Source of the DNA: a virus | Lineage: Duplodnaviria; Caudoviricetes | IMG/VR virus record: IMGVR_UViG_3300021256_000066 | Span: 32,001 to 96,000 of that record | Direction: 5' to 3' (one strand) | Length of the DNA: 64,000 nt | Shown here: positions 13,433 through 53,955 of the stretch, piece by piece | Layout: every line of letters starts with the position of its first letter | How positions within the stretch are numbered: position 1 is the first letter of the stretch | Made by a program: the position numbers and the translations under genes | The notes under the pieces: model-generated | Database searches by the model: none | What the model saw: the letters and a program-made list of their open reading frames with translations, nothing else | Told to the model about the DNA's origin: nothing

Positions 13433-13434
13433 CA

Positions 13435-15559: not shown

Positions 15560-15604
15560 TCCCACATTATAGGCATATTATAGAATCACTTAAAAATTAC
15601 AGAT

Positions 15605-15955: not shown

Positions 15956-16033
15956 TACCCATTATAGAGAGTTTATAGAATCACAGATAAATTTAGAACC
16001 GAAACCCCAATGTGATAACAGGGGATTACGACA

Positions 16034-16303
16034 ATGAGTAAAACAGAGATTTTAAAGAATGCTTACAACCGCATAAAGAATGGCGAAACATTGGTATGTA
16101 ATGGGTGTGTAATGTGGAAATATTATGATCCGTTTGCAGGGCATAATGTAATAGAATGGCGCAATTTCGGACAAAGTGCAAACCGCATGAATTTCGACAA
16201 TTTCAAATGGATTGTAGAGGTGATCGCAAAGAGTATAGATTACATCTTTGAAACCCCACAAGAGTATGCACAAAGAAAGAACATACCATTGTATTTGGTT
16301 TAA
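16034..16303 (+). CDS. Hypothetical protein
   Basis: 89 aa, motifs B and A. Confidence 0.75.
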   Translation: MSKTEILKNAYNRIKNGETLVCNGCVMWKYYDPFAGHNVIEWRNFGQSANRMNFDNFKWIVEVIAKSIDYIFETPQEYAQRKNIPLYLV

Positions 16304-16389
16304 TATCTCTTTATAGGTATATAGAGAGTTTATAGAATCAGAGAATTATTAGAACCGAAACCACAATGTGATAATAGTGGATTACAAAG

Positions 16390-16851
16390 ATGGCAAAGAA
16401 TTTAGAGTTTATCAATGTATTAGAGGATTCTTACCCATTGTATGAGTATTGCAAAGAGAATGGTTTTACCGATTGTGAGGATTACGATGAGTGGTTTGAC
16501 AATGGTGGTGAGTTGAGTTTCTTTGAGGGTGATCCCGACATTATCAAAGTGAATGGTGAGATAGGTTATTTCTGCAAATGTGGTGATGTGGTTTTCTACT
16601 ACTTTGATGATTGTTTCACACATGATGCAGAACAGATACTCAAAGGTTTCTTTGCAGCATTCAATGTGGGTACTACCATTGGCGGTGAGAGTTGGATGAG
16701 TGGTGAGTTACCAAAGGGTGTGAGTGATGCAGCAGAGATACAGAATTGGGATGTGTGGGAAAAGATTAGATGCGGTATTGCATACAGAGGTGGTGCCGGA
16801 TATACCTACACTATACAGAGTTGGGGTAACTATTTGAGGTATGCAGCATAA
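16390..16851 (+). CDS. Acidic hypothetical protein
   Basis: 153 aa, motifs B and A. Confidence 0.75.
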   Translation: MAKNLEFINVLEDSYPLYEYCKENGFTDCEDYDEWFDNGGELSFFEGDPDIIKVNGEIGYFCKCGDVVFYYFDDCFTHDAEQILKGFFAAFNVGTTIGGESWMSGELPKGVSDAAEIQNWDVWEKIRCGIAYRGGAGYTYTIQSWGNYLRYAA

Positions 16852-16950
16852 CCCCATATTATAGACATTATAGGAAATCAGAGATATTACAGATAAACAA
16901 TTTAATTCATAAGAACCGAAACCACAATGTGATAATAGTGGATTACAGAG

Positions 16951-17637
16951 ATGAAGAACTATAAAGTAAAGTTATTCCATTTTGATGAGTTATCAGAGGA
17001 TGCAAAAGCAAAGGTGTGCGATAAGGAGAGAGAGAGTGATTATAACTTTGGCTATCTCTCACAAGAAACAGATGCAGAGGAAAGAATCGCCACATTGGAT
17101 AAGTTCTGTGAGGTATTTGGCATTAAGTATAATATAGATTACGATCATAATCACAGATTCATCGAATGGCATTTCCTGGATGTGGATATGAATGGGTATG
17201 ATTGGTGTGATGAGGATATAGAGGGTAAGTATCTGTTGAGATTTCTCAATCGCTACTACTTTGATATTCTCTCAAAGAAATACTACTCATGCAATCAGCA
17301 TTACGATGAGAATGGCAAATTCCATTACGCACACAGATATTCACGTTTTCAGTATGAGAGAGGTAATTGTCCTTTTACCGGAATGTGTTACGATTGCGAC
17401 ATATTGGATAAGATTTTTGAGTGGTATGACAAACCTAATTGGAAAATCTCTTTGCATGATCTCTTTGAGGATGTTTTCTCTCACTATATGAGTTTGTGGG
17501 AAAGTGAGGATGATTACCGCATGAGTGATGAACACATTTCCGACATGATTTCTGCTAATTGGGGTGATAAACTCTACTTTGAGGATGGTAGAGAGTTTAA
17601 CGGCAATGAGGATGATTTAGAACCGATTGCAGCATAA
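16951..17637 (+). CDS. Acidic phage protein of the FDELSEDAK type
   Basis: N-terminal KLFHFDELSEDAKAKV, CPFTGMCYDCDIL and C-terminal YFEDG resemble a widespread mobile-element family. Confidence 0.7.
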   Translation: MKNYKVKLFHFDELSEDAKAKVCDKERESDYNFGYLSQETDAEERIATLDKFCEVFGIKYNIDYDHNHRFIEWHFLDVDMNGYDWCDEDIEGKYLLRFLNRYYFDILSKKYYSCNQHYDENGKFHYAHRYSRFQYERGNCPFTGMCYDCDILDKIFEWYDKPNWKISLHDLFEDVFSHYMSLWESEDDYRMSDEHISDMISANWGDKLYFEDGREFNGNEDDLEPIAA

Positions 17638-17732
17638 TTATAGGGTAAGTGAGAAATTAAGCGATTACAAACGATTATAGATAGGAATTAGAACCGATCC
17701 CCGAATGTGTATATAAGAGTGGGTTTATAAAG

Positions 17733-18005
17733 ATGAAGAAAAACGATATTTACAGAGAGTTTCAAAGGATTGCAGCAGAGGTAGTGGGTGACAACCGCAA
17801 AGCTCAAAAGTATTATGTGATGCAGATGTGCGAACAGTTGGGTAAGGTGAACCACAAGAACCCATTTGTGATGTGGTGCAGCAGGAAAAGATGTATGGTG
17901 TATCAGAGTGGTATGGTAGAGAAACCTACACCAAAAAACTCACAGAATGGTGCATACTACCTTTTCCGCAATAACTCACAGAGTGCAGAGAGAGTATCTT
18001 TTTAA
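17733..18005 (+). CDS. Hypothetical protein
   Basis: 90 aa, diverged motif A. Confidence 0.7.
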   Translation: MKKNDIYREFQRIAAEVVGDNRKAQKYYVMQMCEQLGKVNHKNPFVMWCSRKRCMVYQSGMVEKPTPKNSQNGAYYLFRNNSQSAERVSF

Positions 18006-18063
18006 GTGAAGAGTGAATAGTGAAGAATTACATATTATAGAACCGGTAAAATATCACAGAATT

Positions 18064-18609
18064 ATGAACAATGATGTATATATGGTGGAATACAAAGGTA
18101 AGAAATTCCCCACAAGAGAGATTGAGATTGAACACTACATTAAGGGTATGGGTGTAGTAACTATTGCCGATTGGGAATTGTGGAAAACAATAGAGGATGA
18201 TTGCCGAAATGGGGATAGCAGAGCAACCGCAATCGACAATGGCATATTCTACTACTGCAATTCGGGAATGATAGCAAGCAATCCGTCTGATACAGAACTT
18301 ATCTACTCTGTATTGAGGGGTATGCACAATGAGGATGATTTTACGGATGAGTGGTGGTACAATCTAATGCGCAATGCAACCTTTGAGATTGCACAGATGC
18401 ACGAAAGAGGTGAGATCAACTGCAATGTAGAGGGTTATGAGTGTGGTGGTTATTATTCGGTGTATGGTTATAGTGATGGTGTGAATCACTCTCTTTATGA
18501 GGGTAAGAGTGCAAAGATGGCTGCAATGGCTGCAATGAGTGCAATCACCACCATCCGGCTGATGAACTATCCGTATTGGAGTATCACAGAGGGTGTAAGT
18601 ACATTATAG
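18064..18609 (+). CDS. Hypothetical protein
   Basis: ATG after AATATCACAGAATT leader. Confidence 0.7.
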   Translation: MNNDVYMVEYKGKKFPTREIEIEHYIKGMGVVTIADWELWKTIEDDCRNGDSRATAIDNGIFYYCNSGMIASNPSDTELIYSVLRGMHNEDDFTDEWWYNLMRNATFEIAQMHERGEINCNVEGYECGGYYSVYGYSDGVNHSLYEGKSAKMAAMAAMSAITTIRLMNYPYWSITEGVSTL

Positions 18610-18660
18610 AGTTTATAGGATATTAGAGATATTACAAACAATTTAATTCAGAATAAGATT

Positions 18661-19245
18661 ATGGCACAGAAATATTCGTTTAAGACAATGTGGATTGATG
18701 ATAAGGAAATGTTTTCAGTTTCATTGTTATGCAATGGTGAGGTGGTAGAAACTCACACATTCAAAGGACACCAGGATATGATGATGTGGATTTCGGACAC
18801 AATGGCAGGGTTGCAACTCTGTGGCGATGATTGGGAATTTGTATGCAAAGAGAGAACCTATATTGAGAAACCCAAAGACAATAACCTTGATGCGCTATTC
18901 AATAGTGTGGTGGAAAAGAGACAATCAGATTACGATAAGCGCAGAGCAGAGGGTAAGGCAAAGGAAAGAGAGTGGATGCAGAGAACACAAGAGTTTTTCG
19001 CAAAGATCGAGTTCTTAAATCAGTATGGTTTCGGTTTCCACATTTCAGAGGAAAAGGAAACTGGTTGCACCTCTTATCCCGATGAACATAGAATATATAT
19101 CCGTCCTTCAAAAACTCATGGGCGTATCAATGTAATGCCGAATGGTGACATACATTGCTCTTGCTATGTAGGCACTTACGACAAGACATTCAAGAGTGTA
19201 GAGGAATTTGTGAAAGCAATGGCAGAGTGTATCAGAATGAAGTAA
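18661..19245 (+). CDS. Hypothetical protein
   Basis: 194 aa, full motif B leader ending ACAATTTAATTCAGAATAAGATTATG. Confidence 0.75.
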   Translation: MAQKYSFKTMWIDDKEMFSVSLLCNGEVVETHTFKGHQDMMMWISDTMAGLQLCGDDWEFVCKERTYIEKPKDNNLDALFNSVVEKRQSDYDKRRAEGKAKEREWMQRTQEFFAKIEFLNQYGFGFHISEEKETGCTSYPDEHRIYIRPSKTHGRINVMPNGDIHCSCYVGTYDKTFKSVEEFVKAMAECIRMK

Positions 19246-19275
19246 CATTATATAACCGATTAAAATTCACAGACT

Positions 19276-19476
19276 ATGGCACAGAACAATATGCAATCAG
19301 ACGAGTTGGTAATCACTATCCGCATTACATTTGAGCATGACGGAAGAATGGGTGATCGGGATGAACGTAATGAGTATGTGGCTGCAAAGGTGATTGGCGA
19401 TGCGCTATCGCACACCCACACCATTGAGAACGGCATACAGATACACGACATCGAGAATTGTGGTGAGAATTGGTAA
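19276..19476 (+). CDS. Hypothetical protein
   Basis: 66 aa in array. Confidence 0.65.
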   Translation: MAQNNMQSDELVITIRITFEHDGRMGDRDERNEYVAAKVIGDALSHTHTIENGIQIHDIENCGENW

Positions 19477-19537
19477 CATTATAGACATTATAGGAAATCA
19501 GAGTAATTAACGAATTAAACAATAGGAGAATTAAGTT

Positions 19538-20410
19538 ATGGCAAAAGAGATTAGTGTTTGTAAGGTAGATATGGGTAGAAACATTGAAAAACCCACAAAG
19601 GTGAATAGGTTTAAGAATTTCTGTACCTACTGCAAAGTACCCACAATAGGTTGGGGCAAGCCATTCTATGCAATCATGCAGGGTAAGTTGAGGGCAGTAA
19701 AGTTCATTCGTATTGAATACTACACCTACAATACCTTTAACAACACAGATAGTTTGGAGTGTAAGTTTGCAGTAATCTATCTTGATGTGGCAGGAATTGG
19801 TGAGGTGAAAGTTTCAGCACACTATTGGTACGACATTCCATTCTCTATCTTTGAGAGTGTAGAGGATTTCAGAAACAATGTGGAGTACGATGTTAGTCAC
19901 GATGCAGGTGAGGTACACCTTTTAGATATGCTGCATGATGTTGCAAATGGTAGGCAGATGTTTAAGCATATTAGTGCAGGAGAGAATGATACCCTATTGC
20001 AGTTTGTGTGGGATGCAGCAAAGTGTGAGGTGAGAACCGCTTACACAGAGATACCCTCATGTATCAGTTACACAGAGAGAGAGGGTTTCTATACCAAAGA
20101 GAAATGGGTATTAGGCAATGGCAGATTTGCCACAAGAGAGGATTGTGAGAATGCCAACAATGTAGAGGTGGTGGAGTTTGAGGACGATCCTACTCACATT
20201 GAAAAGGATTTGCGCAAGCAGATTCGTACTGAAGTAATGCGTACCTTTGCTGATTGGCTAACTGCATCCGACATTGAGAATATGGCAGAGAGTATCATTG
20301 ATGATTGTGTTGAGGATGTTAAGGTATGCAGCGACTACCCACACTACAATGATGATGATGTGCGTATTGCCATTCAGAGGGTAATTCTTAACAGAGTGGT
20401 TGGTGAGTAA
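19538..20410 (+). CDS. Hypothetical protein
   Basis: 290 aa, motif B leader. Confidence 0.75.
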   Translation: MAKEISVCKVDMGRNIEKPTKVNRFKNFCTYCKVPTIGWGKPFYAIMQGKLRAVKFIRIEYYTYNTFNNTDSLECKFAVIYLDVAGIGEVKVSAHYWYDIPFSIFESVEDFRNNVEYDVSHDAGEVHLLDMLHDVANGRQMFKHISAGENDTLLQFVWDAAKCEVRTAYTEIPSCISYTEREGFYTKEKWVLGNGRFATREDCENANNVEVVEFEDDPTHIEKDLRKQIRTEVMRTFADWLTASDIENMAESIIDDCVEDVKVCSDYPHYNDDDVRIAIQRVILNRVVGE

Positions 20411-20488
20411 TCTTATTATAGAGTTTATAGGATATTAGAGATACAATTCAGAACCGAAACCGCAATGCGATAATGGCGGAGTAAGACA

Positions 20489-21190
20489 ATGAAAGAGAAT
20501 ATTGCAGTATTGTTGGCAGAGAGGAACGATTTGGTGGAGAAGTTCAACAAGCGTAAGGACTATGCAGTCCAGGGTACGCAGGACAGAATGGATGAGATTT
20601 GCCGGCAGATAGACAGTCTGATGACAGAGGACAACTCCATTGAGGTGACTTTTTTAGAGTATGGTGTGGTGAGGTACACACAATCACAGATTGATGAGTT
20701 GAAAGCAAAGGGAGTGGATTTATTTCGCTATACGAAGAAAGCAGACGGGATGTACGATCATACGGAGAAGATACTCAAGCAGGGCAGGGTGATACTCTCT
20801 GATAATGACGAGAAGAATCGGTTTTTTCTCTTCTGCATTGGCTACCACAAGTATTTGGATGAGTACACTCCATTCTACCATATCCATGATCACTATCCCT
20901 GCTATCCCCACAAGATACAAAACTCTCTTGACATCTATGAGGGTACATACAAGAATCAGTTTGTGGATGATTTTGTCTATACGACTGCAAACGGAGAGTT
21001 GGCAATCAAGTATGGCAATAAGAGAGTGGATAGTTGGAATACCGCATACAACTGCGTATTGACTACCTCTATTCATGCCAACCTATTCAGCATTAGTCCT
21101 GCATTGATAAGCAAGAACCGCAAAGAGGTGCAGCGTTATGAGGGCAACCGATGGTATCACACTAACCGCATGATTGGGAGTTATCAGTAA
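20489..21190 (+). CDS. Hypothetical protein
   Basis: 233 aa, motifs B and A (CCGC/GCGG variant). Confidence 0.75.
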   Translation: MKENIAVLLAERNDLVEKFNKRKDYAVQGTQDRMDEICRQIDSLMTEDNSIEVTFLEYGVVRYTQSQIDELKAKGVDLFRYTKKADGMYDHTEKILKQGRVILSDNDEKNRFFLFCIGYHKYLDEYTPFYHIHDHYPCYPHKIQNSLDIYEGTYKNQFVDDFVYTTANGELAIKYGNKRVDSWNTAYNCVLTTSIHANLFSISPALISKNRKEVQRYEGNRWYHTNRMIGSYQ

Positions 21191-21319
21191 ACATATTATA
21201 GACATTATAGGAAATCAGAGTAATAACAACTTTTCGATTAAGCGAGTAAAATCAAATGTATTTGAATTGTCGAGCGTGAGAAAAGTCAAACGAAGTTTAA
21301 TTTAATTCAGAATAAGATT

Positions 21320-22051
21320 ATGGTACAGATTGAAAAGATAGACGGAATGTATAAGTGGGATTTGAACCGCATGGTGGATGATTGCTCAAAGAGGATTGGC
21401 GATAATGGCTACTTTGGCAGTTGGCACAAGATTCAGATAGACGGAAAGCAGACGATGGTGTATTGCGATGATAGGGATGCACTCTGCTTTACTGCAATCA
21501 ATGAGTGGTTTGACGAGGTGGTAGTGTTGGAATGGAGTGGTGACTATCGTTGGAATAGCGACAAACCCGCAATCGTAAGGAATGGCGATAAGTTCAATAT
21601 AGTGGAATGTCCCAAAGGTGGAATGTATAATAGCAGCAAGAAAATGCGCTTGCTCTGTGATGTGTGGTTTGAGTTAGTGGGTGATCCCAAATGGAAGTTT
21701 GACGATGAGCTGCATACCTACTGCATCATGGCAAAGATAGATGGCAATGTGGTGAAGATTACCAAAGAGGGTAGCATTGTAGAGGGAAACCCTCAAGAAC
21801 TGATGGCAGAGGTTAGCCATTATAGCATGGATGAGATATTAGAGAAGTGGATTCGTGCAGGCAAACGCTGCATCTATCGTGAGGGATGGGCATACAGAGG
21901 TGCAAAGTCAAAGGTTATCAGCAATGAGGATGCAGAGAGAATGTTACCTCAATACCATTTCGGCAAAGGATTCTATGAGTTGCGTTGGACGATGGATGAT
22001 GGCAAGGTAGCATTGGAGTTCAATGAACTATCAGTATTGGATATGGAGTAA
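21320..22051 (+). CDS. Hypothetical protein
   Basis: 243 aa, motif B leader with inserted palindromic repeat. Confidence 0.75.
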   Translation: MVQIEKIDGMYKWDLNRMVDDCSKRIGDNGYFGSWHKIQIDGKQTMVYCDDRDALCFTAINEWFDEVVVLEWSGDYRWNSDKPAIVRNGDKFNIVECPKGGMYNSSKKMRLLCDVWFELVGDPKWKFDDELHTYCIMAKIDGNVVKITKEGSIVEGNPQELMAEVSHYSMDEILEKWIRAGKRCIYREGWAYRGAKSKVISNEDAERMLPQYHFGKGFYELRWTMDDGKVALEFNELSVLDME

Positions 22052-22112
22052 CCCTTTATAGCGAGTGTAAGAAATCAGAGTAGAAACAATTAAAGTATAG
22101 GAGAAACAAGTT

Positions 22113-22880
22113 ATGATTATCAATATTGAGTTTACAACCGCAAGAGGTTACAAGTATGAGACGATGCGCACAGAGTTTGACCGCAACTATCGGGATGAGG
22201 AACAGGCATTGATCTTCGTGGAGAGCGAGGAGGATGATTTCAATGGCTACTTTGAGGTGAACATCCGCAAGGACAAGCAGGGCAAGGCTATCAGCGAGGG
22301 TTATGTGTGCGAGTATGCAAGCACAGAGGATAGCGACCCACAGACTATCTATGAGGATGCGAAGATTGAGGTCAAGCTGCATGACTTTGACGATGTGTTG
22401 GAGTTGGCTAATGCGGAACTGTGGCAGGATGATTTGCAGATTGTGTTGGAGTACGATGGTGAGTGTTATTGGGCTATCGGCACAGAGATTAAGGCTACAA
22501 AGGAAATTAAGTGGTATGTATCGGCAGACTTTGAGAACGAGGTGCGAGGGCATATCTATGAGTGTTGGGCACACGCAAGGGCTATGGCAAAGGAATTGGC
22601 AAAGACTGACGATAAACCGAAGATGTGGTGTGTGACTTATGTGGGTTTGTCGGATTCGGAGTACAAGGCTAATGGCTATTCAGAGGTTGCTCTGTATGCC
22701 ACAAAGGATGCAGCGAAAGCGAAACTGAAAGCATGGCGAGACAACGAGATTGCGGAACTGAAAGAGCAGGAACGTGACTATGAGATATTGGAAGATGAGG
22801 ACGATGAGTGCCGTATCAGTTGGTGCGGACATGGTGAGCAAATCCGCATTGAGGTACACGAAGTGGAGTTGAATAAGTAA
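22113..22880 (+). CDS. Highly acidic hypothetical protein
   Basis: 255 aa, D/E-rich. Confidence 0.75.
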   Translation: MIINIEFTTARGYKYETMRTEFDRNYRDEEQALIFVESEEDDFNGYFEVNIRKDKQGKAISEGYVCEYASTEDSDPQTIYEDAKIEVKLHDFDDVLELANAELWQDDLQIVLEYDGECYWAIGTEIKATKEIKWYVSADFENEVRGHIYECWAHARAMAKELAKTDDKPKMWCVTYVGLSDSEYKANGYSEVALYATKDAAKAKLKAWRDNEIAELKEQERDYEILEDEDDECRISWCGHGEQIRIEVHEVELNK

Positions 22881-22946
22881 ACCCCTACATATTATATACA
22901 TTATAGAATATTACAGAAATCAGCAACAATTTAATTCAGAAAGATT

Positions 22947-23495
22947 ATGAAGAAAGAGATTATTTTGGCAGTAGCCAATCAGATACAGAACATGATGTAT
23001 AACGACATTACTTGTGAGTATGGAGTGGAGAGTTTTGAGAGTTGGTGCAACGATGGTGAGGTGTTTGAGAACGAGGGTATGGATGCAGCCGATGTGAAAG
23101 AGTGTATGCAGTTGGTTAAGGTGGTTGCTCCATTGGTGGATAACTTGGTGATGAACAACCTCAATATCGACAATCCCGAAGTGGCGGTTGCGAAGAAAGA
23201 GTATGTGGTGCGGTCTATCTCATGGGATGATAAGTTGAATGCTATTATAGAGGCTGCGAGAAATGAGGGATTTGCCGAAGAGGTGGAGGATATAGACTTG
23301 CTCTCATATATCAAGGTGAACGACAAAGGAGAGAAAGAAACCTTTGAGGAACGTTTCGACTATATCGACACTACCACCATTCCGATATCTGTTCACTTTA
23401 TCTGTGGCACCGGCTATGAGAACTATTCCGTACCTATCGGATGGCTGACAGACGAGAGTATTGATAAACTCTATGAGTGCGTGATAAACAAGTAA
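22947..23495 (+). CDS. Acidic hypothetical protein
   Basis: 182 aa, motif B leader. Confidence 0.75.
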   Translation: MKKEIILAVANQIQNMMYNDITCEYGVESFESWCNDGEVFENEGMDAADVKECMQLVKVVAPLVDNLVMNNLNIDNPEVAVAKKEYVVRSISWDDKLNAIIEAARNEGFAEEVEDIDLLSYIKVNDKGEKETFEERFDYIDTTTIPISVHFICGTGYENYSVPIGWLTDESIDKLYECVINK

Positions 23496-23563
23496 TCACC
23501 TTTTATATATTATAGTGAGATTATAGGATTTAGTGAGAAATTAAAAGTATAGGAGATAAGATT

Positions 23564-23788
23564 ATGGGATGGATTAAAACACCAACGAAATCGAGCGAGG
23601 AAATCTTCAGCGAGATTGTCAAAGACAGACCGACTTGGAACGGACGGATTGGCGATAGCACAACACCATACGAATATTGGAGTGACTGGCTGCGTGATAA
23701 CTATGACCTCACAATAAAGCAAGCTGACGAGGTTTGCAGAGGACTTAAAGAGTATTACCATATAGAGCATTTCTATTATGGAGAGTGA
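23564..23788 (+). CDS. Hypothetical protein
   Basis: 74 aa in array. Confidence 0.7.
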   Translation: MGWIKTPTKSSEEIFSEIVKDRPTWNGRIGDSTTPYEYWSDWLRDNYDLTIKQADEVCRGLKEYYHIEHFYYGE

Positions 23789-23826
23789 GAAAAATCAGAG
23801 AAATAACAATTTAATTCAGTAAGATT

Positions 23827-24396
23827 ATGGATAAGACGAATAATACGATGTATTCAAAGGGTATGGTTGATAACATGATTGTGAGCGGTACTGCGGAGAA
23901 CCGCAAAGTGTTGAACGGCACAAACTATCAGTTTGACGAGATGGGCGAGTGCGAGATAGAGATGCGTTTCTTTGACGGATTGGCGGTGGCTACTGACGAT
24001 AGCGGAGTGGTGGTGCGCTATCCTAAGTTGAGCGAGGTGCAGGGGTCTGTAAAGATGCAGCAGGCTATCTACCGACATACGGGATTGAACTGCGCGAGTC
24101 AGTTTGATGTGGCTCTGACCTTTGGCAAGGCTGACCGCTATAAGATGGTGGCTGACTACGACATTTGGCGGTTGCAGGGCGACAACGAGGACTTGGATAT
24201 TACCGCTATACATTCTGCTGACGGAAAGTTTCTGTTTGATGTGTTGGAGGATGACTATGAGGAAATGATGAATGCTGACATCGTGGAGGATGGCTATCTG
24301 TGTGGGCAGCCTACTGACGAGCAGATCAAAGAGTGGCAGGCTAAGTATGGCATTCTGTGGACGGAGAACTTTACTAAGGAGTTGGTGGGTGCTTAA
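23827..24396 (+). CDS. Acidic hypothetical protein
   Basis: 189 aa, ACAATTTAATTCAGTAAGATTATG leader. Confidence 0.75.
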   Translation: MDKTNNTMYSKGMVDNMIVSGTAENRKVLNGTNYQFDEMGECEIEMRFFDGLAVATDDSGVVVRYPKLSEVQGSVKMQQAIYRHTGLNCASQFDVALTFGKADRYKMVADYDIWRLQGDNEDLDITAIHSADGKFLFDVLEDDYEEMMNADIVEDGYLCGQPTDEQIKEWQAKYGILWTENFTKELVGA

Positions 24397-36606: not shown

Positions 36607-37344
36607 ATGAAACCGATTTTTGATATGAACAAGACAAAGCAACTATTACGCGACATCGCGGCCATCTGGCGTCGGCGATGGGAACACACGAACTGGACGG
36701 CGGCGCTGACATGGGTCGTGGGCGGCATCCTGACGGCGGCTGCCTACGTGCTGGTCGTGTCGGTCATCATGGGCATGCTCAGTTCGTGCGCCACGAAAAA
36801 GGAACTCCACGAGCATCACCAGCACACCGTCAGTGCCGACACGCTGGCCCAGGAGGCCCGTCACGACAGTCACACCAGCCATACGACCGCCAACATCGAC
36901 TCGCTCGTAACGGCCTCCGTCTGGGCGGCGATGCAGGAGTTCGTGGCGCAGGAAAAGAGCATGGAGACCACCACTGAGACGATCACGACCTGGGTGGACT
37001 CGCTCGGAAGGGAGATGCGGCAGGAACAGCGCACCACGCAGCGCGAGCTCTCGCGGCAGGAACAGCAGCGCTGGCAGCAGACCGAGGCACGCTGGCAGAA
37101 CGAGCTCCACCAGACGCTGCGGCAGATGGACTCAACGTGGAGCGACCGCATCAGCCGCTTCGAGAGCCACCTGCGCGACTCGCTCAACCACGAACTCAGC
37201 AAGCAGACCGAGACCAGCGGCGCACCCGCCCTCACGTGGTGGCAGCGAATGTGGCAGTGGCTCAAAGGCATCCTCGCGGGTGTCGCCATCTGTGGCGCCC
37301 TCTATCTTACCCGCCGTTTCTGGCAGCCTCTCATCAAACGGTAA
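36607..37344 (+). CDS. Lipoprotein with C-terminal TM helix (unimolecular spanin-like)
   Basis: Lipobox-like MLSSC-ATKK, coiled coil, LTWWQR..WLKGILAGVAICGALYL; preceded by the GTCCCA/-7 promoter. Confidence 0.55.
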   Translation: MKPIFDMNKTKQLLRDIAAIWRRRWEHTNWTAALTWVVGGILTAAAYVLVVSVIMGMLSSCATKKELHEHHQHTVSADTLAQEARHDSHTSHTTANIDSLVTASVWAAMQEFVAQEKSMETTTETITTWVDSLGREMRQEQRTTQRELSRQEQQRWQQTEARWQNELHQTLRQMDSTWSDRISRFESHLRDSLNHELSKQTETSGAPALTWWQRMWQWLKGILAGVAICGALYLTRRFWQPLIKR

Positions 37345-37349
37345 CGGCG

Positions 37350-37586
37350 ATGAATAACATGCACGGACACAGGCGCATCCAGTGGACCGACGAGCAGCTG
37401 GACTACATGCGCAAGCACTTCCCGACGGAGCCTGCGTGCGACATCGCCGACGTGCTCGGGTGCAGCAGCGCCACGGTGAGCAACCTCGCACGCAGCATGG
37501 GACTGAAGAAGTCGCCCGACTTCAAGGTGAGTAACTACACGAACCGCTACGTGCAGCGCGGCGGGGTCGTCAGAAAGGTGGAATAA
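37350..37586 (+). CDS. Small HTH protein
   Basis: WTDEQLDYMRKHFP...DIADVLGCSSATVSNLARSMGLKK. Confidence 0.7.
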   Translation: MNNMHGHRRIQWTDEQLDYMRKHFPTEPACDIADVLGCSSATVSNLARSMGLKKSPDFKVSNYTNRYVQRGGVVRKVE

Positions 37587-37621
37587 TCTATACACTTCTT
37601 TTGAATTTTATATAAGGCGAT

Positions 37622-37951
37622 ATGAAACAGACGACGGAAACAAATTACAAGCATTTCTACACCAAGGGCAACACCGACTACTTCATCACGAAGGAGGGCA
37701 CGGTGCTGAGCGCAAGCGACCCTGACAGCGACCCGCAGACGTGGCGCGAGATAGCCACCTATAACGGCAAGGGCTACCGCCGCGTCAGGCTGCAGGGTAA
37801 GACGTTCAAGGTACACCGCCTCGTGGCAGAGGCCTTCGTGCCGAACCCCTACAGCCTGCCAAACGTGCTCCACAAGGACGGCGATCGTGAGAACAATCAC
37901 TACACCAACCTGGAGTGGAGCTCACGCCAGAGTAATCATCCACGAGCATGA
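37622..37951 (+). CDS. HNH endonuclease (HNH_3 type)
   Basis: VHRLVAEAFVPNP...VLHKDGDRENNHYTNLEW. Confidence 0.9.
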   Translation: MKQTTETNYKHFYTKGNTDYFITKEGTVLSASDPDSDPQTWREIATYNGKGYRRVRLQGKTFKVHRLVAEAFVPNPYSLPNVLHKDGDRENNHYTNLEWSSRQSNHPRA

Positions 37952-38097
37952 CTGACCGACCGATGATACTGGGGCGGTACAGCCCGAGCCAGAACGGCAT
38001 AGTGGTAAGTCCATCGGGGATTGCCCTGTGCCTTGCATGGGGGGGTAACGGGCACGACACCGATAAACCGAAAATACTGATAGAGTATGATATTTAG
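37948..38097 (+). CDS. MTase variable-region-like module 1 (G7 at 38039-38045, in frame)
   Basis: MTDRPMILGRYSPSQNGIVVSPSGIALCLAWGGNGHDTDKPKILIEYDI. Confidence 0.7.
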   Translation: MTDRPMILGRYSPSQNGIVVSPSGIALCLAWGGNGHDTDKPKILIEYDI

Positions 38098-38275
38098 AGT
38101 GACCAATACTGCGCAGCCGAAGCCGATACGGGGGGGGCAAATCAGAGCAGTCAACACGACGGGCGACCTGTGTGCCGCCACGCTTACCACGAGATACGAT
38201 GCCGTCGGCCCTACGAATATAATTACGCTGGCACACTATCCGATGACCGTAATACTGATAGAGTATGAAATGTAG
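38087..38275 (+). CDS. Module 2 (G8 at 38130-38137, in frame)
   Basis: KPIRGG..VNT..ATLTTRYD..TLAHYPMTVILIEYEM; paralog of module 12. Confidence 0.7.
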   Translation: MIFRVTNTAQPKPIRGGQIRAVNTTGDLCAATLTTRYDAVGPTNIITLAHYPMTVILIEYEM

Positions 38276-38418
38276 TGGAATAATAAGAATAGGCAACCTC
38301 TTCTACGACAGTTTCCGCAGTGGATTCGACGGAAACGTTCAGGGCTGTATGGGTGTCACTCAGACGGTCTTGGCTGCCAACGGGGGGGGTATATCTTGGT
38401 AGAATATGACAACCTATA
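38265..38418 (+). pseudogene. Module 3 (G8 at 38382-38389, frameshifted; G9 restores YILVEYD end)
   Basis: MKCSGIIRIGNLFYDSFRSGFDGNVQGCMGVTQTVLAANGGG, then premature TAG. Confidence 0.65.
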
Positions 38419-38588
38419 AGGCAATCGGCTGGACGCGCAGCGGCAACGGCAGGGGCGATGTGGACCGCTACCACCTCCGCGACATCTCCAACACCATCAC
38501 CTCGTTCTGTGGGGGGGGTATTGGGAAGGATTCTGCCACCGGCATGTATAACACCACACCGTATATACTCGTAGAATATGAACTATAA
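38406..38588 (+). CDS. Module 4 (G8 at 38511-38518, in frame)
   Basis: DISNTITSFCGGG...NTTPYILVEYEL. Confidence 0.7.
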   Translation: MTTYKAIGWTRSGNGRGDVDRYHLRDISNTITSFCGGGIGKDSATGMYNTTPYILVEYEL

Positions 38589-38773
38589 CAACTCGCGACT
38601 GAACGCGATGATCATGGGGGGGGCAATGGGAGCCGAACTACCACGGCGAGATGCTCGACACCTACAACCAGCAGGCACACCGCCACACGGCGATCACCAT
38701 ACTGGCAGGCATATCGTCGCGCAACCACTACTTCGTGTGTGAAGAACGTTTACCATCAAAACTTAGAAAATAT
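38578..38773 (+). pseudogene. Module 5, continuous with the MTase frame but frameshifted at G8 (38616-38623)
   Basis: With G7 or G10: MNYNNSRLNAMIMGGQWEPNYHGEMLDTYNQQAH...NHYFV continuing into the MTase. Confidence 0.65.
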
Positions 38774-40246
38774 ATGATTGCAAAAATTTATCCTGACGGG
38801 CACCCTGACTTGCAGGGAAAGAAAGACCCTACGCACCCAGTGCGCTATTTCGACATCCGAAAACTCACTCCACGCGAGTGCTATTCACTGATGGGCGTGC
38901 CGCCGCAGCAGATCGACACGCTGATGAAAACCGAAAAGAGACCATATATGGCATGGGTGGGCGTAGATGCCGAACTGGCTGTGTTTGGACTGGAGCCGAG
39001 TGCCACGCGCCGCGAGGTGGATGAAGCATATCGCGAGGCTATCGAGAGCCTGAATAACCAGGCAGCTGACGATGCAGACGCACAGGAAGAAACCGACGAA
39101 GATACCGCACGGCTGATGGCAGAGAAGCCCGAAGACAATGCCGAGGAAACCGCGCTGATGCGACAGAACTACGAGATGAACTATCAGCGCATCATCGCTG
39201 CCAGTCAGGAGCAGCGTTACGGTGACGTGCAGATTATTGCCAACTCATCGCATTACAAGCTGGCGGGTAACTCCATCGTCTGCGACGTACTGATGTATAT
39301 CTACGAGGAATTGCTCTACCCCACGTACCGCCGACTGCCGCAGGAGCAGACCGACCTATTCGCCCAGCCACAGTTCCGCTTGACCCGAGACTGGAAGAAA
39401 GAGCCGCTGAAGTTGGTAACACTTTGCAGCGGTTACGACAGTCAGGCAATCGCTATGGATATGCTGCAACAGCGATATCCGGACTTCCGATGGGAACTGA
39501 AGGCATGGAGCGAGTTCGACCCCGAGAGCAGCCGACCATTGGAAGAGCAGCCCGCCATAGTGGCCCATAATCTGCTGTTCCCACAATACAAGGATTTGAA
39601 CCGGGGCGACATGACCAAGGCTGATTGGAGCGACCTCGCCGATGCAGGTATCGACCTGCTGACATATAGCACTCCGTGTCAGTCCATCTCACAGGCTGGC
39701 AAGCGAGAGGGTATCAAGAAAGGTAGTGGCACTCGCAGTGCCGTACTTTGGAGTACCGAAGAAGCTGTTCGCCAGATGCGACCGAAGGTGCTGCTGCAGG
39801 AGAACGTGCGGGCGCTTATCAACAGCGTGAACATGCCCGACTTCAAGGAGTGGTGCAGTCTGCTGGAGAGCCACGGCTACGTGAACTTCCTCGCGCCCTC
39901 GTTCCCGACGGTCTGGGGCACCGACAAGCGCGACAAGAAGACCGTGCCGGGCATCCTGAACGCCAAGCACTACGGCGTGCCACAGAACCGCGAAAGGGTG
40001 TATATGGTCTCCGTGCGTGCCGACATGCTCGGCGGCACGCAGTACGAGTTTCCACGTCCTTTCCCGCTCGACAAGTGCATCGCCGACGTGCTGGAGGACA
40101 ATGTGGACGAGCGCTTCTTCCTAAAGCCCGACTCGGTGATCAAGTTCCTCACCGTCAACGAACAGACCGACGGCAGCGACATACACTATATGGTAACGGA
40201 CCACAAACTGAGTGATGAGGAAATCAGACGTGCAAGAGGTGAATAG
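38651..40246 (+). CDS. Circularly permuted C5-cytosine DNA methyltransferase (motif order IX-X-I...VIII); alternative start at 38774
   Basis: IRKLTPRECYSLMG (IX), YKLAGNSIV (X), TLCSGYDSQ (I), YSTPCQSISQAG (IV), LQENVRAL (VI), GVPQNRERVY (VIII). Confidence 0.93.
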   Translation: MLDTYNQQAHRHTAITILAGISSRNHYFVCEERLPSKLRKYMIAKIYPDGHPDLQGKKDPTHPVRYFDIRKLTPRECYSLMGVPPQQIDTLMKTEKRPYMAWVGVDAELAVFGLEPSATRREVDEAYREAIESLNNQAADDADAQEETDEDTARLMAEKPEDNAEETALMRQNYEMNYQRIIAASQEQRYGDVQIIANSSHYKLAGNSIVCDVLMYIYEELLYPTYRRLPQEQTDLFAQPQFRLTRDWKKEPLKLVTLCSGYDSQAIAMDMLQQRYPDFRWELKAWSEFDPESSRPLEEQPAIVAHNLLFPQYKDLNRGDMTKADWSDLADAGIDLLTYSTPCQSISQAGKREGIKKGSGTRSAVLWSTEEAVRQMRPKVLLQENVRALINSVNMPDFKEWCSLLESHGYVNFLAPSFPTVWGTDKRDKKTVPGILNAKHYGVPQNRERVYMVSVRADMLGGTQYEFPRPFPLDKCIADVLEDNVDERFFLKPDSVIKFLTVNEQTDGSDIHYMVTDHKLSDEEIRRARGE

Positions 40247-40378
40247 GGGGGGCAAATCGGCGGTTGCTACTGGAAACAGAAGGACGGCTATGTGCGCCGT
40301 CCGCTCTGGGGACTGTCCCGCACGCTGAAAGGCGATGGCAATCATCCTGCAGGAATAATCATTGAGTATGAATTATGA
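40215..40378 (+). pseudogene. Module 6 (G7 at 40246-40252, frameshifted; G8 restores). Its 3' part is in frame with the MTase behind the TAG
   Basis: GGQIGGCYWKQKDGYVRRPLWGLSRTLKGDGNHPAGIIIEYEL. Confidence 0.65.
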
Positions 40379-40509
40379 AACAGACACCGAGAGCGTGCAT
40401 CTACTACAACTTGTCGCTGATGTATAACGACGGCATGAAGTGGGACTTGGTGGCCAAGACGGTCATCGGCGACACGCATCCACAAGCGCTATTGATAGAG
40501 TATGAGTAG
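40375..40509 (+). CDS. Module 7 (no tract)
   Basis: MKQTPRACIYYNLSLMYNDGMKWDLVAKTVIGDTHPQALLIEYE. Confidence 0.65.
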   Translation: MKQTPRACIYYNLSLMYNDGMKWDLVAKTVIGDTHPQALLIEYE

Positions 40510-40702
40510 CATTACCCCCCCCATATTGCGGCAAGTCCCTGTTCGGCGAGTGCGGACGGAGTGGGCAAAAGCCGTCAGGCGGCAGACTGGTACCAACCCT
40601 TTTCAGGCCAAGCAACTGGAGGAGTTTGTGTCGGACTACATGCCTACCATCACCGCCAGCGCAAACATCGAGAACTATATCAAAGTAGAATATGAAATAT
40701 AG
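40502..40702 (+). CDS. Module 8 (C8 at 40515-40522, in frame)
   Basis: RTEWAKAVRR...MPTITASANIENYIKVEYEI. Confidence 0.7.
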   Translation: MSSITPPILRQVPVRRVRTEWAKAVRRQTGTNPFQAKQLEEFVSDYMPTITASANIENYIKVEYEI

Positions 40703-40864
40703 AATACAGACAACAAGCACCATGCCGATATACGAAGGCCACCTGGTAAAACCCGGATGGCACCACAAGGCTTGTGAGGTGCTGAATGTGGGGGGGTATC
40801 GACATGTATTCACACCCAGAGCAACAATCTGCTTCAAAAAATCATCATAGAGTATGAGTTATGA
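40692..40864 (+). pseudogene. Module 9 (G7 at 40790-40796, frameshifted; G8 restores)
   Basis: With G8: ...EVLNVGGVSTCIHTQSNNLLQKIIIEYEL. Confidence 0.65.
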
Positions 40865-41024
40865 AACCAATTAGTTATAAACTTGGAGTCCACATCGTAG
40901 GTCATCGCCTGGAGTGGAAAGGTGGGGGGGTATTGAGAGTAATATGTGGAAGAACATCTGCCCTTGCATCCGTATGAACGATTACAAATGTCCAATGAAT
41001 TGTCTGATAGAGTATGACGATTAA
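40861..41024 (+). pseudogene. Module 10 (G7 at 40924-40930, frameshifted; G8 restores)
   Basis: With G8: ...GGGGIESNMWKNICPCIRMNDYKCPMNCLIEYDD. Confidence 0.65.
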
Positions 41025-41162
41025 GACGCGATATATCAACTGCAACTGCGACAATACGGTCAAGTCGATACTGGCCGGATGTTACAAGTTCGGTGCTGCC
41101 ACTCTGCTTAGGGGGGGCAAGCCAGTATGACATCGGTATTGTTTGAATATGAATACGATTAA
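41014..41162 (+). pseudogene. Module 11 (G7 at 41111-41117, frameshifted; G8 restores)
   Basis: With G8: ...TVKSILAGCYKFGAATLLRGGQASMTSVLFEYEYD. Confidence 0.65.
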
Positions 41163-41349
41163 ACTGCGACAGACCACATCGGCCACGGCCAAGCCTATAC
41201 GGGGGGGGTACTTCCTGCCCGTCAACACAGCATCAGGAGGTGTCGCTTGCACGCTCAACACCCGCTACGACGGCATGCAGCTGCCAGAAGACATCCTCAC
41301 GCTGGCCCATTACCCCAAGACCGTCGTGCTCAGAGAGTATCATTTATGA
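41149..41349 (+). CDS. Module 12 (G8 at 41201-41208, in frame)
   Basis: KPIRGG..VNT..ACTLNTRYD..TLAHYPKTVVLREYHL; paralog of module 2. Confidence 0.7.
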   Translation: MNTIKLRQTTSATAKPIRGGYFLPVNTASGGVACTLNTRYDGMQLPEDILTLAHYPKTVVLREYHL

Positions 41350-41461
41350 AGGACGAATCAACAGCAGTCAGGACGGCATCGTCATCAGCGCCCGAGGCAT
41401 TGCCCTCACCCATACCGCTGGTCACGGCAATTGCCCGAAGATATTGATAGAATATGAGTGA
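41339..41461 (+). pseudogene. Module 13 (ATC where the junction ATG is expected; no tract)
   Basis: IIYEGRINSSQDGIVISARGIALTHTAGHGNCPKILIEYE; paralog of module 1. Confidence 0.6.
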
Positions 41462-41708
41462 AGCGAAACGATACAGCACAGCAGGTCGCCCGTTCCTTGA
41501 AATCGCCACGAGGGGGGGGCAGACCGTACTGCGAATCCGACAAGCCACCGAACAGGGCTATATCGAGTGCGACCCGCAGGGTGTCTGCGACCTTGCCTAC
41601 CCGGAGAGCGAACTGCGCCGTGCCCGTGTCAAGGACCGAGGCCGCGTCTGCGGAACGCTGATGAGCGACAATCAGCAGTTCTGCGTCTTCATCGAACATG
41701 ACATATAG
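41454..41708 (+). CDS. Module 14 (G8 at 41512-41519, in frame)
   Basis: IRQATEQGYIEC...DLAYPESELRRARV...CGTL resembles the ATKKGY...PNSKTRRGRV segment of phage C5-MTase variable regions. Confidence 0.75.
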   Translation: MSEAKRYSTAGRPFLEIATRGGQTVLRIRQATEQGYIECDPQGVCDLAYPESELRRARVKDRGRVCGTLMSDNQQFCVFIEHDI

Positions 41709-41752
41709 TACAAAATATATACGAATATCTCAACAAACAAAACAAGAATCTT

Positions 41753-42076
41753 ATGAAACAGACATTTGAATTTGACGAAGAGCAGGTGCTGACGATTGTA
41801 ACGGCACTTGGAGTATTGAAAGACCGCATCGGTCAGAAAGGCAGCTGGTTGCAGCGCAAGCGAATGCCGACACTGCGCGGACGATTGGCCGACTGTATCA
41901 CCATTGGTGACGAAACGGAGGCCGACGGGGTGCGCAAGGCTCTGGCTAAGGCGCAGAAGGATCACCAGAGCCGCATTACCCGAGGCGAGAAGATTGCCGA
42001 ACTGATGAACGATATCAAGCAGCAGGCGGGTGTGACCACCGAAAGACTGCGTGACTACGACATCGCGGAGGGCTGA
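41753..42076 (+). CDS. Hypothetical protein
   Basis: 107 aa. Confidence 0.7.
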   Translation: MKQTFEFDEEQVLTIVTALGVLKDRIGQKGSWLQRKRMPTLRGRLADCITIGDETEADGVRKALAKAQKDHQSRITRGEKIAELMNDIKQQAGVTTERLRDYDIAEG

Positions 42077-42079
42077 CCG

Positions 42080-42247
42080 ATGGCAGACCTCACTATCACT
42101 ATCCCGAGCCAAGACCTCGGTGACTTCTATCGGATGTTGCGGGACTTCAGGCGAAATCGTGGCAACACGTTCGCCTACCTGCAAATCGAACTTGAACAGC
42201 GATACCCCAAACTGAAAGAGCGATATGGAACTGCATCTGAAGATTAA
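42080..42247 (+). CDS. Small hypothetical protein
   Basis: 55-aa ORF closely packed between its neighbours. Confidence 0.5.
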   Translation: MADLTITIPSQDLGDFYRMLRDFRRNRGNTFAYLQIELEQRYPKLKERYGTASED

Positions 42248-42605
42248 CGACGTGGTGGGCATGGACGACGAGAAGCGCCACATACTGCGAGTGGACGAGG
42301 AAAGCCTGCGCACGGCACTGATGGCTCACCCAGGATGGCTGACGCAGAACGTGGTCAAGGACTGGCTCTTGAAGCACAACACCAGACTGCTGAACGAAAT
42401 CATCGACGACCCCACGCTGCGCAACAACATCTATATGGCCGAGAAAGCCAAGCGCGACGGCAAGGCCGAGCAGCGTGAGCGGCATCGGCTGTTTGAGATT
42501 GAGAAAAAGCGCAGGCACGACCAGTTCATCGCATCGCAGAACTATCGGCAGAGCGTAGATTACATTCACAACGTATTAGGATGGAACAATGACGAAACCG
42601 ATTAA
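42225..42605 (+). CDS. Hypothetical protein
   Basis: 126 aa. Confidence 0.7.
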   Translation: MELHLKINDVVGMDDEKRHILRVDEESLRTALMAHPGWLTQNVVKDWLLKHNTRLLNEIIDDPTLRNNIYMAEKAKRDGKAEQRERHRLFEIEKKRRHDQFIASQNYRQSVDYIHNVLGWNNDETD

Positions 42606-52718: not shown

Positions 52719-53123
52719 ATGGCAAAGAAAAAGAACCAGAAGACATCGACAGAGATGCTGCAGGAGATGGCCGACGACTTCGGCAGGATGGCGGAAGACA
52801 TGAAAGCGCTGATGGAGGGCTATATCGGACCGACACAGCAGGAGTACATCGACAAGATCAATGCCGACTGGAACGGCTATAACTTCATCGTCGTCTTCGG
52901 TCACGTGTACCGTCTGACCAACGAGAAGAAATACAAGGAGAACGGCTCGCTGCGCTGCCCCTGCGAGGTGTGCGAACTGAACGGCAGTTGCTGTCAGGAC
53001 TCCGACAAGACGCTCTGCGGCATCCTTCGTGCTGATACCGACGAGTATTTCTACGATGCAGGCGAGCTGGTCATCGACAAGCGCGGCAAGATGAAGGTTA
53101 AAAAATGGTATGGTGATAAATAA
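52719..53123 (+). CDS. Cys-rich hypothetical protein
   Basis: 134 aa. Confidence 0.7.
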   Translation: MAKKKNQKTSTEMLQEMADDFGRMAEDMKALMEGYIGPTQQEYIDKINADWNGYNFIVVFGHVYRLTNEKKYKENGSLRCPCEVCELNGSCCQDSDKTLCGILRADTDEYFYDAGELVIDKRGKMKVKKWYGDK

Positions 53124-53135: not shown

Positions 53136-53346
53136 ATGGCAAAGAAAGTATTTCTCGGAAATGGACTAAGCCGCACGGCGATGGTGTTCAAGATTGCGAC
53201 GCTGGCAGGACATAAGCTGACAGTGCCTGAAATGAACCGCATCAAAGATATCAACCCCCGCGCCCTGGAGCGAGTCTATGACTCCGTATTGGGGGGGGGT
53301 AAGTAAGGGCGACGCGCTGTTTGCACTCAGACTTGTATTGAAATAA
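53136..53346 (+). CDS. Small protein truncated at a G9 tract (stop at 53306; G8 would extend it to 53346)
   Basis: MAKKVFLGNG...VYDSVLGGGK* versus ...LGGVSKGDALFALRLVLK*. Confidence 0.55.
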
Positions 53347-53367: not shown

Positions 53368-53955
53368 ATGGAAGAAGACATAAGACCGGAAGATTATGGC
53401 TACGATAGTGAGGCCATTGCTGAACAGGCACGGGAGATTCTGAAGCACAACAGGCCCTATCAGAAAATCTACGAGCAACTGGAGCGACTCGATCCACGAA
53501 CTGACTTCGTGAAGCGCAACTACCTGTTGACACAGGCTCGGCTGATGGAAGAAAATGAAATCAAGCGGCTGATGGATCTCACTAACAAGCGCCGTCAGGA
53601 CGTGCGTCGCATCGGTGACTATCTGGAGCAACACAACCCCGAGGACAGCGAGAAATATGAGACGTTGATGGCTGGCTTTGCCTTCCTGCTCGACATGATA
53701 GATTTCACGCTCCACGACATCAACGAAATCCTCTTCCGCAACAAGACCGACATCAAGATGGAGAACTTTCCCGAAATCGTGAAGTGCCGCAAGTTGGCAG
53801 AGGAAATGGCAGGTAATGACATCCAGAAGATGCCCGAATGGCAGCGCAATATGTGGATGTATGAGAGCGACCGTCTGTTCAATTACCTCAAGACGCGTTC
53901 TGCAGATTATCTCCGACGGGCCGAGCGGGAAGAGAAGAAACGTATCAAAAAGTAG
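53368..53955 (+). CDS. Hypothetical protein
   Basis: 195 aa. Confidence 0.75.
   Translation: MEEDIRPEDYGYDSEAIAEQAREILKHNRPYQKIYEQLERLDPRTDFVKRNYLLTQARLMEENEIKRLMDLTNKRRQDVRRIGDYLEQHNPEDSEKYETLMAGFAFLLDMIDFTLHDINEILFRNKTDIKMENFPEIVKCRKLAEEMAGNDIQKMPEWQRNMWMYESDRLFNYLKTRSADYLRRAEREEKKRIKK

Follow-up and report, generated by a model that had tools for sequence, protein, structure and literature searches.

What are more than a dozen very short genes doing on either side of the DNA methyltransferase of a rumen phage? The question is raised by the window analysed here, a stretch of 64,000 nucleotides (nt) that comprises bases 32001-96000 of the 129.5-kb IMG/VR virus record IMGVR_UViG_3300021256_000066, which was judged complete. 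Within it, a locus of 3.76 kb consists of a circularly permuted cytosine-5 (C5) methyltransferase open reading frame (ORF; 38651-40246, 531 amino acids (aa)) and 14 mini-modules of 44-84 aa, five upstream and nine downstream of the methyltransferase core, all on the + strand. An earlier note, made from the DNA letters alone, had compared the modules to target-recognition domains (TRDs) and had left three options for their use: specificity subunits acting in trans, joining by frameshifting, or joining by recombination. We consider it likely that they are separately translated, individually phase-variable TRD subunits that act in trans on one core.

The locus was compared with about 60 related loci from viral, genome and metagenome collections (JGI, ENA, NCBI and Logan assemblies). 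In what follows, modules 1-14 are referred to as M1-M14, related loci by L numbers and matched proteins by P numbers.

A permuted core with modules at both ends

The core matches PF00145 with 130 bits (cutoff 22; E 1.3e-37), the Pfam match falling in two stretches. Motifs IX (..IRKLTPRE..) and X (..AGNSIV..) precede the segments ..LCSGYDS.. and ..PCQSIS.. of motifs I-VIII in one polypeptide, in agreement with the earlier description of the enzyme as permuted, and the catalytic motifs PCQ, ENV, QNRER and GNS are invariant in an alignment of 13 relatives. Because the motif order is permuted, the site between motifs VIII and IX, where the TRD usually lies, corresponds to both ends of the gene. 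This confirms that the modules sit at the TRD-equivalent ends, as had been proposed. The features of the locus are as follows.

M1, 37948..38097 (+): 49 aa, G7 at 38039-38045, in frame; relatives have G8, the first G being replaced by T in the window (..AWGGNG).
M2, 38087..38275 (+): 62 aa, G8 at 38130-38137, in frame; TL-type core (..CAATLTTRY..).
M3, 38265..38419 (+): 51 aa if G9; G8 at 38382-38389, out of frame as assembled, one G short, so that the ORF ends at the junction TAG 38402; at G9, the L007 ortholog is in frame.
M4, 38406..38588 (+): 60 aa, G8 at 38511-38518, in frame.
M5, the cis module, 38578..38773 (+): ATG at 38578, G8 at 38616-38623; 1 nt out of frame with the methyltransferase (one G too many), to which G7 would fuse it, as in L005, where the fused reading has G7. 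As assembled, the methyltransferase ORF starts at ATG 38651.
Conserved permuted core, 38774..40246 (+): PF00145; motifs IX and X, acidic insert, motifs I-VIII; no TRD inside; begins MIAKIY, preceded by an A-rich leader.
M6, 40215..40378 (+): 54 aa if G8; G7 at 40246-40252, out of frame as assembled; starts inside the 3' end of the methyltransferase, whose TAG the tract abuts.
M7, 40375..40509 (+): 44 aa, no tract, in frame.
M8, 40502..40702 (+): 66 aa, C8 at 40515-40522, in frame; with C5, the L001 ortholog is one CCC codon shorter here.
M9, 40692..40864 (+): 57 aa if G8; G7 at 40790-40796, out of frame as assembled.
M10, 40861..41024 (+): 54 aa if G8; G7 at 40924-40930, out of frame as assembled; L010-L016 carry intact orthologs with no tract.
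M11, 41014..41162 (+): 49 aa if G8; G7 at 41111-41117, out of frame as assembled; at G8, the L005 ortholog is in frame.
M12, 41149..41349 (+): 66 aa, G8 at 41201-41208, in frame; degenerate junction end (..REYHL).
M13, of the M1 family, 41339..41461 (+): no ATG, GTG or TTG start and no in-frame stop upstream.
M14, 41454..41708 (+): 84 aa, G8 at 41512-41519, in frame; full TRD of the ..QATxxGY..RRxRV.. type.

All 14 modules were thus found at the coordinates and on the strand first noted, and the observation is stronger than originally stated. Some caveats, at which the earlier note only hinted, apply: five stand-alone modules (starting at 38265, 40215, 40692, 40861 and 41014) reach their ..IEYE end only with a 1-nt change in the G tract, and M13 lacks a start.

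Relationship of the modules to target-recognition domains

The clearest link to TRDs comes from M14. A profile (A1) built from four in-frame M14 orthologs and searched against 1.84 billion proteins gave 551 matches at E<=1e-3, including 94 at E<=1e-10. Nine of ten long matches sampled belong to PF00145, and E values against long methyltransferases go down to 1e-14. The matched region lies between motifs VIII and IX in the canonical enzymes P0050, P0048 and P0034; in other matches it lies directly before motifs IX-X, in proteins that consist of a TRD array followed by IX-X. M14 shares 43% identity over 56 residues with the canonical 339-aa P0050, at residues 225-280, past QNRER and before motif IX, in keeping with its proposed resemblance to a variable segment of phage C5 methyltransferases. 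P0034 (672 aa) and P0048 (545 aa) have the canonical motif order and variable regions of 300-415 residues made up of tandem TRDs, and the initial comparison with multispecific phage enzymes was apt in this respect. Successive segments of P0034 correspond to M2 (264-291, E 4e-4), M1 (331-395), M8 (398-434) and M14 (481-534).

For the other modules, family hidden Markov models (HMMs) were searched against 55 long proteins. They scored 48 bits for the M11 family, 42 for M3 (against a TRD-array protein), 21 for M6, 19 for M2/M12, 18 for M10 and 16 for both M1 and M4, as compared with 4-9 bits, and at most 9.4, for a control of 1100 shuffled sequences. M8 and M9 join TRD-like families only through intermediates, once more sequences are added; M9 is linked in this way to the M1/M3 superfamily. 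The check suggested in the earlier note, an HMM search against C5 methyltransferase variable regions, thus gave matches above the shuffled controls for the M14 profile and seven more families, in the same variable regions. As judged from these comparisons, the modules, M7 excepted, are shown to be homologous to C5 methyltransferase TRDs.

An AlphaFold2 model of M14 alone is a small beta domain with a predicted local distance difference test (pLDDT) score of 91.2. Over residues 21-84 this model matches a predicted PF00145 cluster of the ESM Atlas with a template-modelling (TM) score of 0.64 (1.8 Å, 64 residues). From the searches made, the M14-type TRD is without a solved structural relative, and phmmer and hmmsearch runs with M1, M4 and the M14 profile against PDB sequences gave no methylase match. 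Pfam had no match to the seven modules that are in frame as assembled (M1, M2, M4, M7, M8, M12 and M14), and the sole PHROGs match to M14 was weak, to a 'DNA methyltransferase' family. With M2, an Atlas feature search gave no usable match, and a word-based search for longer fused forms found none.

About 35 further matches to the M14 profile, such as P0030 and P0016 (250-390 aa), contain tandem TRDs and motifs IX-X and lack I-VIII. These proteins look like beta subunits of split multispecific C5 methylases, and they seem to be common in metagenomes and poorly described. A separate observation concerns M2-type modules at the same array position in two relatives (L004:3644-3832 and L018:3646-3833): the leader is shared up to the tract, and the recognition parts differ (..CASTIVAHY.. 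versus ..CAATLTTRY..), which suggests module-internal recombination downstream of the tract.

Junctions, tracts and switching

Adjacent modules overlap at a conserved junction. Its consensus, ..ATAGAGTATGA.., encodes the ..IEYE end of one module together with the ATG of the next in the +1 frame, inside TATGA. The string GARTATGA occurs 11 times in the locus versus 4 times in the remaining 60 kb of the window. The module-end protein motif likewise occurs 11 times in the locus and nowhere else on either strand of the 129.5-kb genome, so the related module ends described earlier are not only real, they are specific to the locus. With a GC content of 0.21-0.39 versus 0.53, the junctions are AT-rich, and 13 of the 14 modules have their own ATG in such a context. 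At canonical junctions, stops in all three frames fall within -9 to +13 nt of the next ATG. A ribosome in any phase would therefore end beside the next start, and translation could restart whatever the phase of the upstream module. Switching one module is thus expected to be non-polar for the next. The cis module ends differently (..YFVCEE), with no DNA similarity to the junction repeat, and the cis site has no junction-like 3' flank.

Selection on the modules was assessed from the ratio of nonsynonymous to synonymous substitution rates (dN/dS) among orthologs repaired at the tract. It was 0.18 overall, 0.20 before and 0.10 after the tract, in a calculation in which synonymous sites are near saturation. 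Purifying selection, the absence of which had been named as grounds for abandoning the idea, is thus apparent on both sides of the tracts; this indicates that both halves are read in the inferred frame and that out-of-frame copies are not decaying. In a sister clade (for example L053 and L016; core ~55% identical) the architecture is the same and tracts are almost absent: downstream of a cis TRD and core lie seven intact ORFs in a row, of 46-77 aa, whose stops and starts overlap at the same kind of junction. The evidence from these comparisons says that the modules are separate translated genes.

The relation between modules and core varies among relatives. In 16 of 47 related loci the core starts with MIAKIY, has a stop just upstream and carries no cis TRD; in the other 31 the core is extended in cis by a module fused in frame. 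M4-family modules, free in the window, are fused to the core N-terminus in L010-L013. The comparison with related phages, which the earlier note had recommended, thus finds module families upstream of the core in some phages, downstream in others, or fused in cis. In L074, an unrelated 64-kb phage contig, a 384-aa core has no TRD; a 59-aa module overlaps its 3' end, an M14-type gene lies 5 kb away, and the system is free of tracts. A covalent link between module and core is apparently not needed, to judge from these arrangements. Among stand-alone homologs of M14, 28 of 63 extend over its first ~25 residues, versus 3 of 56 long methyltransferases, and this N-terminal leader may be an adaptation to free life. 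A polyvalent protein of 4993 aa, in which PBECR1, DNA_methylase and ART-PolyVal domains are combined, is also encoded on the L074 contig (L074:20068-20264).

Twelve of the 14 modules contain one G7, G8 or C8 tract each. There are 17 runs of at least seven G or C genome-wide, and 12 of these fall in the locus, which makes up 2.9% of the 129.5-kb length; 2000 trials of a first-order Markov simulation of the locus gave on average 0.36 such runs and never more than 4. In the window's long ORFs glycine is least often encoded by GGG (12%), and none of their 43 Gly-Gly pairs is GGG-GGG, as compared with 10 of 16 pairs in the modules. Where orthologs lack the tract, the same Gly-Gly-Gly is spelled with a mixture of codons. 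Since the tracts run against codon usage and the same residues can be encoded otherwise, selection acts on the runs as DNA, and the protein does not require them.

The tracts were further surveyed in the close clade, deduplicated to 42 loci and 214 modules, with modules counted if they were in frame or could be opened by a single-step tract change. By this count 196 of the 214 modules have a tract, with lengths of six (8 modules), seven (99), eight (63), nine (24) and ten (2). Among these 196, 72 (37%) are in frame, 99 need +1 and 25 need -1. Two pairs of contigs from different samples, compared over 4651 and 2882 nt, have 0 mismatches and yet differ in tract length, at three of nine tracts (L006/L046) and at two of eight (L027/L028). 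In pairs at 94-97% identity, indels fall at tracts in 6/6, 4/4, 1/1 and 7/11 cases, L004/L018 being the 6/6 pair. As in a contingency locus, the tracts are coding, a change of +/-1 opens or breaks the ORF, and tract length outpaces the surrounding sequence. The contig comparisons show the tracts to be hypermutable, and with otherwise identical contigs differing in tract length the term 'phase-variable' used at the outset is strongly supported. Switching would be reversible, because the out-of-frame copies are not decaying.

One tract may do more than open or close a module. From the M12 start, G8 at 41201 gives M12 (66 aa), G7 or G10 gives an alternative frame that stays open into the ATG-less M13 (101 aa), and G6 or G9 gives an unrelated reading. 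In L001, L025 and L003/L004/L018, too, the alternative frame runs without a stop into an M13-like module; where no M13 follows an M2-type module, it closes after 8-43 codons. These readings are suggestive of a two-way toggle between M12 and M13.

Long tracts also occur outside the modules. The core of some relatives carries C tracts of its own, at two sites that are both without a tract in the window core. One lies in motif IX (TPPE) and is C8, in frame, in L002-L004, C7, frameshifted, in L018 (L018:4107 region) and C9 in L007 (L007:4048); the other lies just past motif IX and is C10, frameshifted, in L005 (L005:4250). The two distinct positions point to independent gains. Upstream of the window (L075:1614-3197, genome 22613-24196), further long tracts (C11, G7 and G10) lie in a radical-SAM-like ORF and in the 3' ends of two N6_N4 DNA methylase ORFs, both of which are cut off near profile position 182 of 221. 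Overall, 15 of the 17 long G/C runs of the genome are in either the N6_N4 methylase gene cluster or the C5 locus, so that the phage's other methylases may be phase-variable too. Elsewhere in the window, a G9 run at 53291-53299 lies between ORFs 52719-53123 and 53368-53955, in intergenic DNA or an uncalled small ORF, and a C7 run is followed directly by A8 at 8426-8440.

A proposed methyltransferase in separate parts

Of the three options raised at the outset, subunits acting in trans fit the sequence evidence best, on account of the modules' own starts and stops and their purifying selection, the 16 cores without a cis TRD and the occurrence of families on both sides of the core. The locus would then be a multispecific C5 DNA methyltransferase taken apart into subunits. 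The core (IX-X-I..VIII), starting at 38774, or at 38578 or 38651 with the cis module, would supply catalysis and motif IX, and target recognition would come from free TRD proteins of 44-84 aa, each made off its own mini-gene. A module would dock non-covalently where a cis TRD sits, between motif VIII at the core C-terminus and motif IX at the core N-terminus. Each junction would end one module and start the next, presumably by translational coupling. Replication slippage at the G7-G9/C8 tracts of 12 of the 14 modules would flip each specificity independently; tract 41201 may toggle M12 and M13, and tract 38616 would fuse or unfuse the cis module. The outcome would be a phage population with many methylation patterns, which may serve as a bet-hedge against the differing restriction systems of hosts and against methylation-dependent restriction. 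We lean, if slightly, towards the fuller picture of a Type-I-like C5 enzyme in which one core is served by ~14 free TRDs with their own switches, a toggle and a cis-fusion switch, giving thousands of phasotypes.

Several points weigh against such trans-acting subunits. We know of no detachable whole TRD in any characterised C5 methyltransferase, and our literature searches found no description of split or phase-variable C5 TRD arrays. M7 is the only module for which HMMs and intermediate sequences gave no detectable TRD-family link, and the M14 model had no meaningful match in the PDB (Foldseek and VIA-align, best Z 2.2). An AlphaFold2 model of the cis-fused L012 enzyme has a good catalytic domain, with pLDDT below 50 for TRD residues 1-62, and therefore says nothing on the site of TRD docking. 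Conservation of the ..EY[ED] module end may in part reflect a DNA need of the junction, the ATG and TGA within TATGA, and not protein docking. Finally, half of the tract modules in the census stand at G7, which could mean low expression by slippage and not a clean OFF state, or could alternatively reflect a bias in length calling.

Could translated modules have some other role, modulating or inhibiting the enzyme or its cis TRD, binding DNA or serving another methylase, so that only cis TRDs direct methylation? The cis extension retained in 31 of the 47 loci would suit such a role, as would the two N6/N4 methylase genes that the phage has besides its C5 methyltransferase, and binding of the modules to the core in trans is something that we infer. 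Set against this are the TRD-less cores of the 16 loci and of L074, which are conserved and intact, although we know of no way in which a C5 methyltransferase without a TRD recognises its targets. The modules are moreover homologous to working positions of multi-TRD enzymes, and the same family is found free or cis-fused. We regard another role as unlikely.

Joining at the level of RNA or the ribosome is disfavoured more strongly. Transcriptional slippage, -1 frameshifting at G7 or recoding at the junctions would yield tandem-TRD polyproteins, as in canonical relatives, where these TRDs stand in tandem; the tract is most often G7 (99/196), one G below the in-frame length, and a -1 slip would restore the frame, and the read-through from M12 to M13 also uses an alternative frame. 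What makes this reading improbable is that every canonical junction has three-frame stops and a fresh ATG in the +1 frame, so that joining five or nine modules would need as many successive recoding events. Each module ends in a stop, also in the tract-less clade, which retains the stop/start junctions; the locus thus differs from SPR-type enzymes with tandem TRDs in one polypeptide. The downstream modules lie beyond the stop of the core, and a family found on one side of the core in some phages is on the other side in others.

We give similarly little credence to silent cassettes that are recombined, by gene conversion or deletion, into an expressed site before motif IX, in the manner of pilS/pilE or vls. 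A diverged array with short conserved flanks does lie beside a site that holds different families in different phages, and one module variant looks recombinant between L004 and L018. The modules, however, possess the translation signals that silent cassettes would lack (an ATG, a stop and an AT-rich start context), are under purifying selection over their full length, and share no flank with the expression site, the ..YFVCEE end of the cis module having no DNA similarity to the junction repeat. All repeats are direct, so that exchange would delete modules, minimal systems hold just one or two of them, and frame-switching tracts would be pointless in silent DNA. With modules that have their own start and stop, and cores that lack a cis TRD, joining by frameshifting or by recombination, both raised in the earlier note, is disfavoured.

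It is scarcely credible that a once-continuous multispecific gene was broken by homopolymer errors or pseudogenisation: six modules are indeed frameshifted exactly at homopolymers in this assembly, but the same layout recurs in ~60 contigs across JGI, ENA, NCBI and Logan assemblies, the modules have a dN/dS of 0.1-0.3 both before and after the tract, there are more tracts than codon usage would give, and the window's other genes are unbroken. An origin in long-read homopolymer error alone was rejected, as the layout recurs across assemblers and the junction stops and starts are not at homopolymers. Stop-codon reassignment was ruled out because the modules occupy different frames, and a CRISPR-like or RNA repeat array was ruled out by the coding constraint and by an Rfam scan of 37000-42500, which found no RNA family.

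One further gene lies directly upstream of the array.

HNH endonuclease gene, 37622..37951 (+): PF13392 HNH_3, E 1.5e-9; its stop overlaps the M1 start (ATGA).

The HNH gene and the array probably belong to the same operon, and no + strand terminator was found between the HNH gene and the array end. The start context TTATGAAACAGAC (Met-Lys-Gln-Thr) is common to the HNH gene, M7 and a post-array ORF (window 37620, 40373 and 41751). Window positions 12001-24000 form a low-GC island (0.35-0.43 versus 0.5-0.6 elsewhere) with strong positive GC skew. L018, a close relative, was binned with a rumen Prevotellaceae metagenome-assembled genome.

How does such a locus compare with known systems? M.BssHII keeps its TRD within the chain, unlike the many cores here that have none. 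With IX-X before I-VIII in one chain it otherwise resembles the locus core, being a circularly permuted C5 methyltransferase that is mentioned in PMC5944983 and PMC3404938. The multispecific C5 methyltransferases of Bacillus phages SPR, phi3T and rho11s (Trautner et al. 1996, as cited in PMC12707154), like P0034 and P0048, share with the locus the use of several short TRDs, presumably for one target each, by one core, and the SPR-type enzymes are also phage-borne and presumably anti-restriction. Their TRDs are consecutive in one polypeptide, between VIII and IX, whereas those of the locus are ORFs of their own, mostly tract-bearing, on both sides of a permuted core. M.AquI (alpha/beta) and M.EcoHK31I (PMC3404938), and apparently P0030 and P0016, belong to C5 methyltransferases made of several polypeptides with the break in or near the variable region, as is proposed here. 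Together with the fragment complementation of M.SssI, these natural splits indicate that the variable region tolerates breaks (PMC3404938). M.AquI and M.EcoHK31I have two fixed subunits with the TRD attached to conserved motifs; in the locus, an entire TRD would stand apart from all conserved motifs and would be one of ~14 that can replace each other.

Phase variation by simple-sequence tracts or shuffling that switches specificity is established for bacterial methyltransferases, including Type III mod phasevarions, Type I hsdS with repeats or inversions and Type IIG CjeI-like systems (PMC4889913, PMC7672463, PMC11868660), and Type I HsdS, like the proposed modules, is a separate specificity subunit for a common methylase. 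These are adenine or N4 enzymes of cells with one or few switches per system, whereas in the locus about a dozen switches within one operon would act independently of each other on a C5 enzyme of a phage. Homopolymers used by phages for bet-hedging are also described, as polyG tracts in Campylobacter Fletchervirus receptor-binding genes (Sorensen 2021, as cited in PMC12823448) and as contingency loci of T2 and T4 (bioRxiv 10.1101/2025.10.21.683753). They affect receptor-binding or assorted genes instead, and as far as the two papers were searched, we found no mention of C5 TRD arrays in either.

If the trans-acting reading is true, the C5 class would gain its first detachable TRD, and no denser cluster of contingency switches would be known from any virus. 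C5 TRDs would be autonomous, portable recognition units, and how tandem TRDs share one catalytic domain, a question open since the work on SPR and phi3T, would become directly testable. A core with plug-in specificity proteins would also be a natural parts kit for programmable writing of 5-methylcytosine. Gene callers would label such loci frameshifted junk or hypothetical mini-ORFs. For the phage, the arrangement would amount to combinatorial epigenetic bet-hedging, in which protection from Type II restriction is weighed against exposure to methylation-dependent restriction. As the system is common in rumen and gut metagenomes (~60 loci; 551 relatives of one module), it may influence which hosts phages can infect where Prevotellaceae abound.

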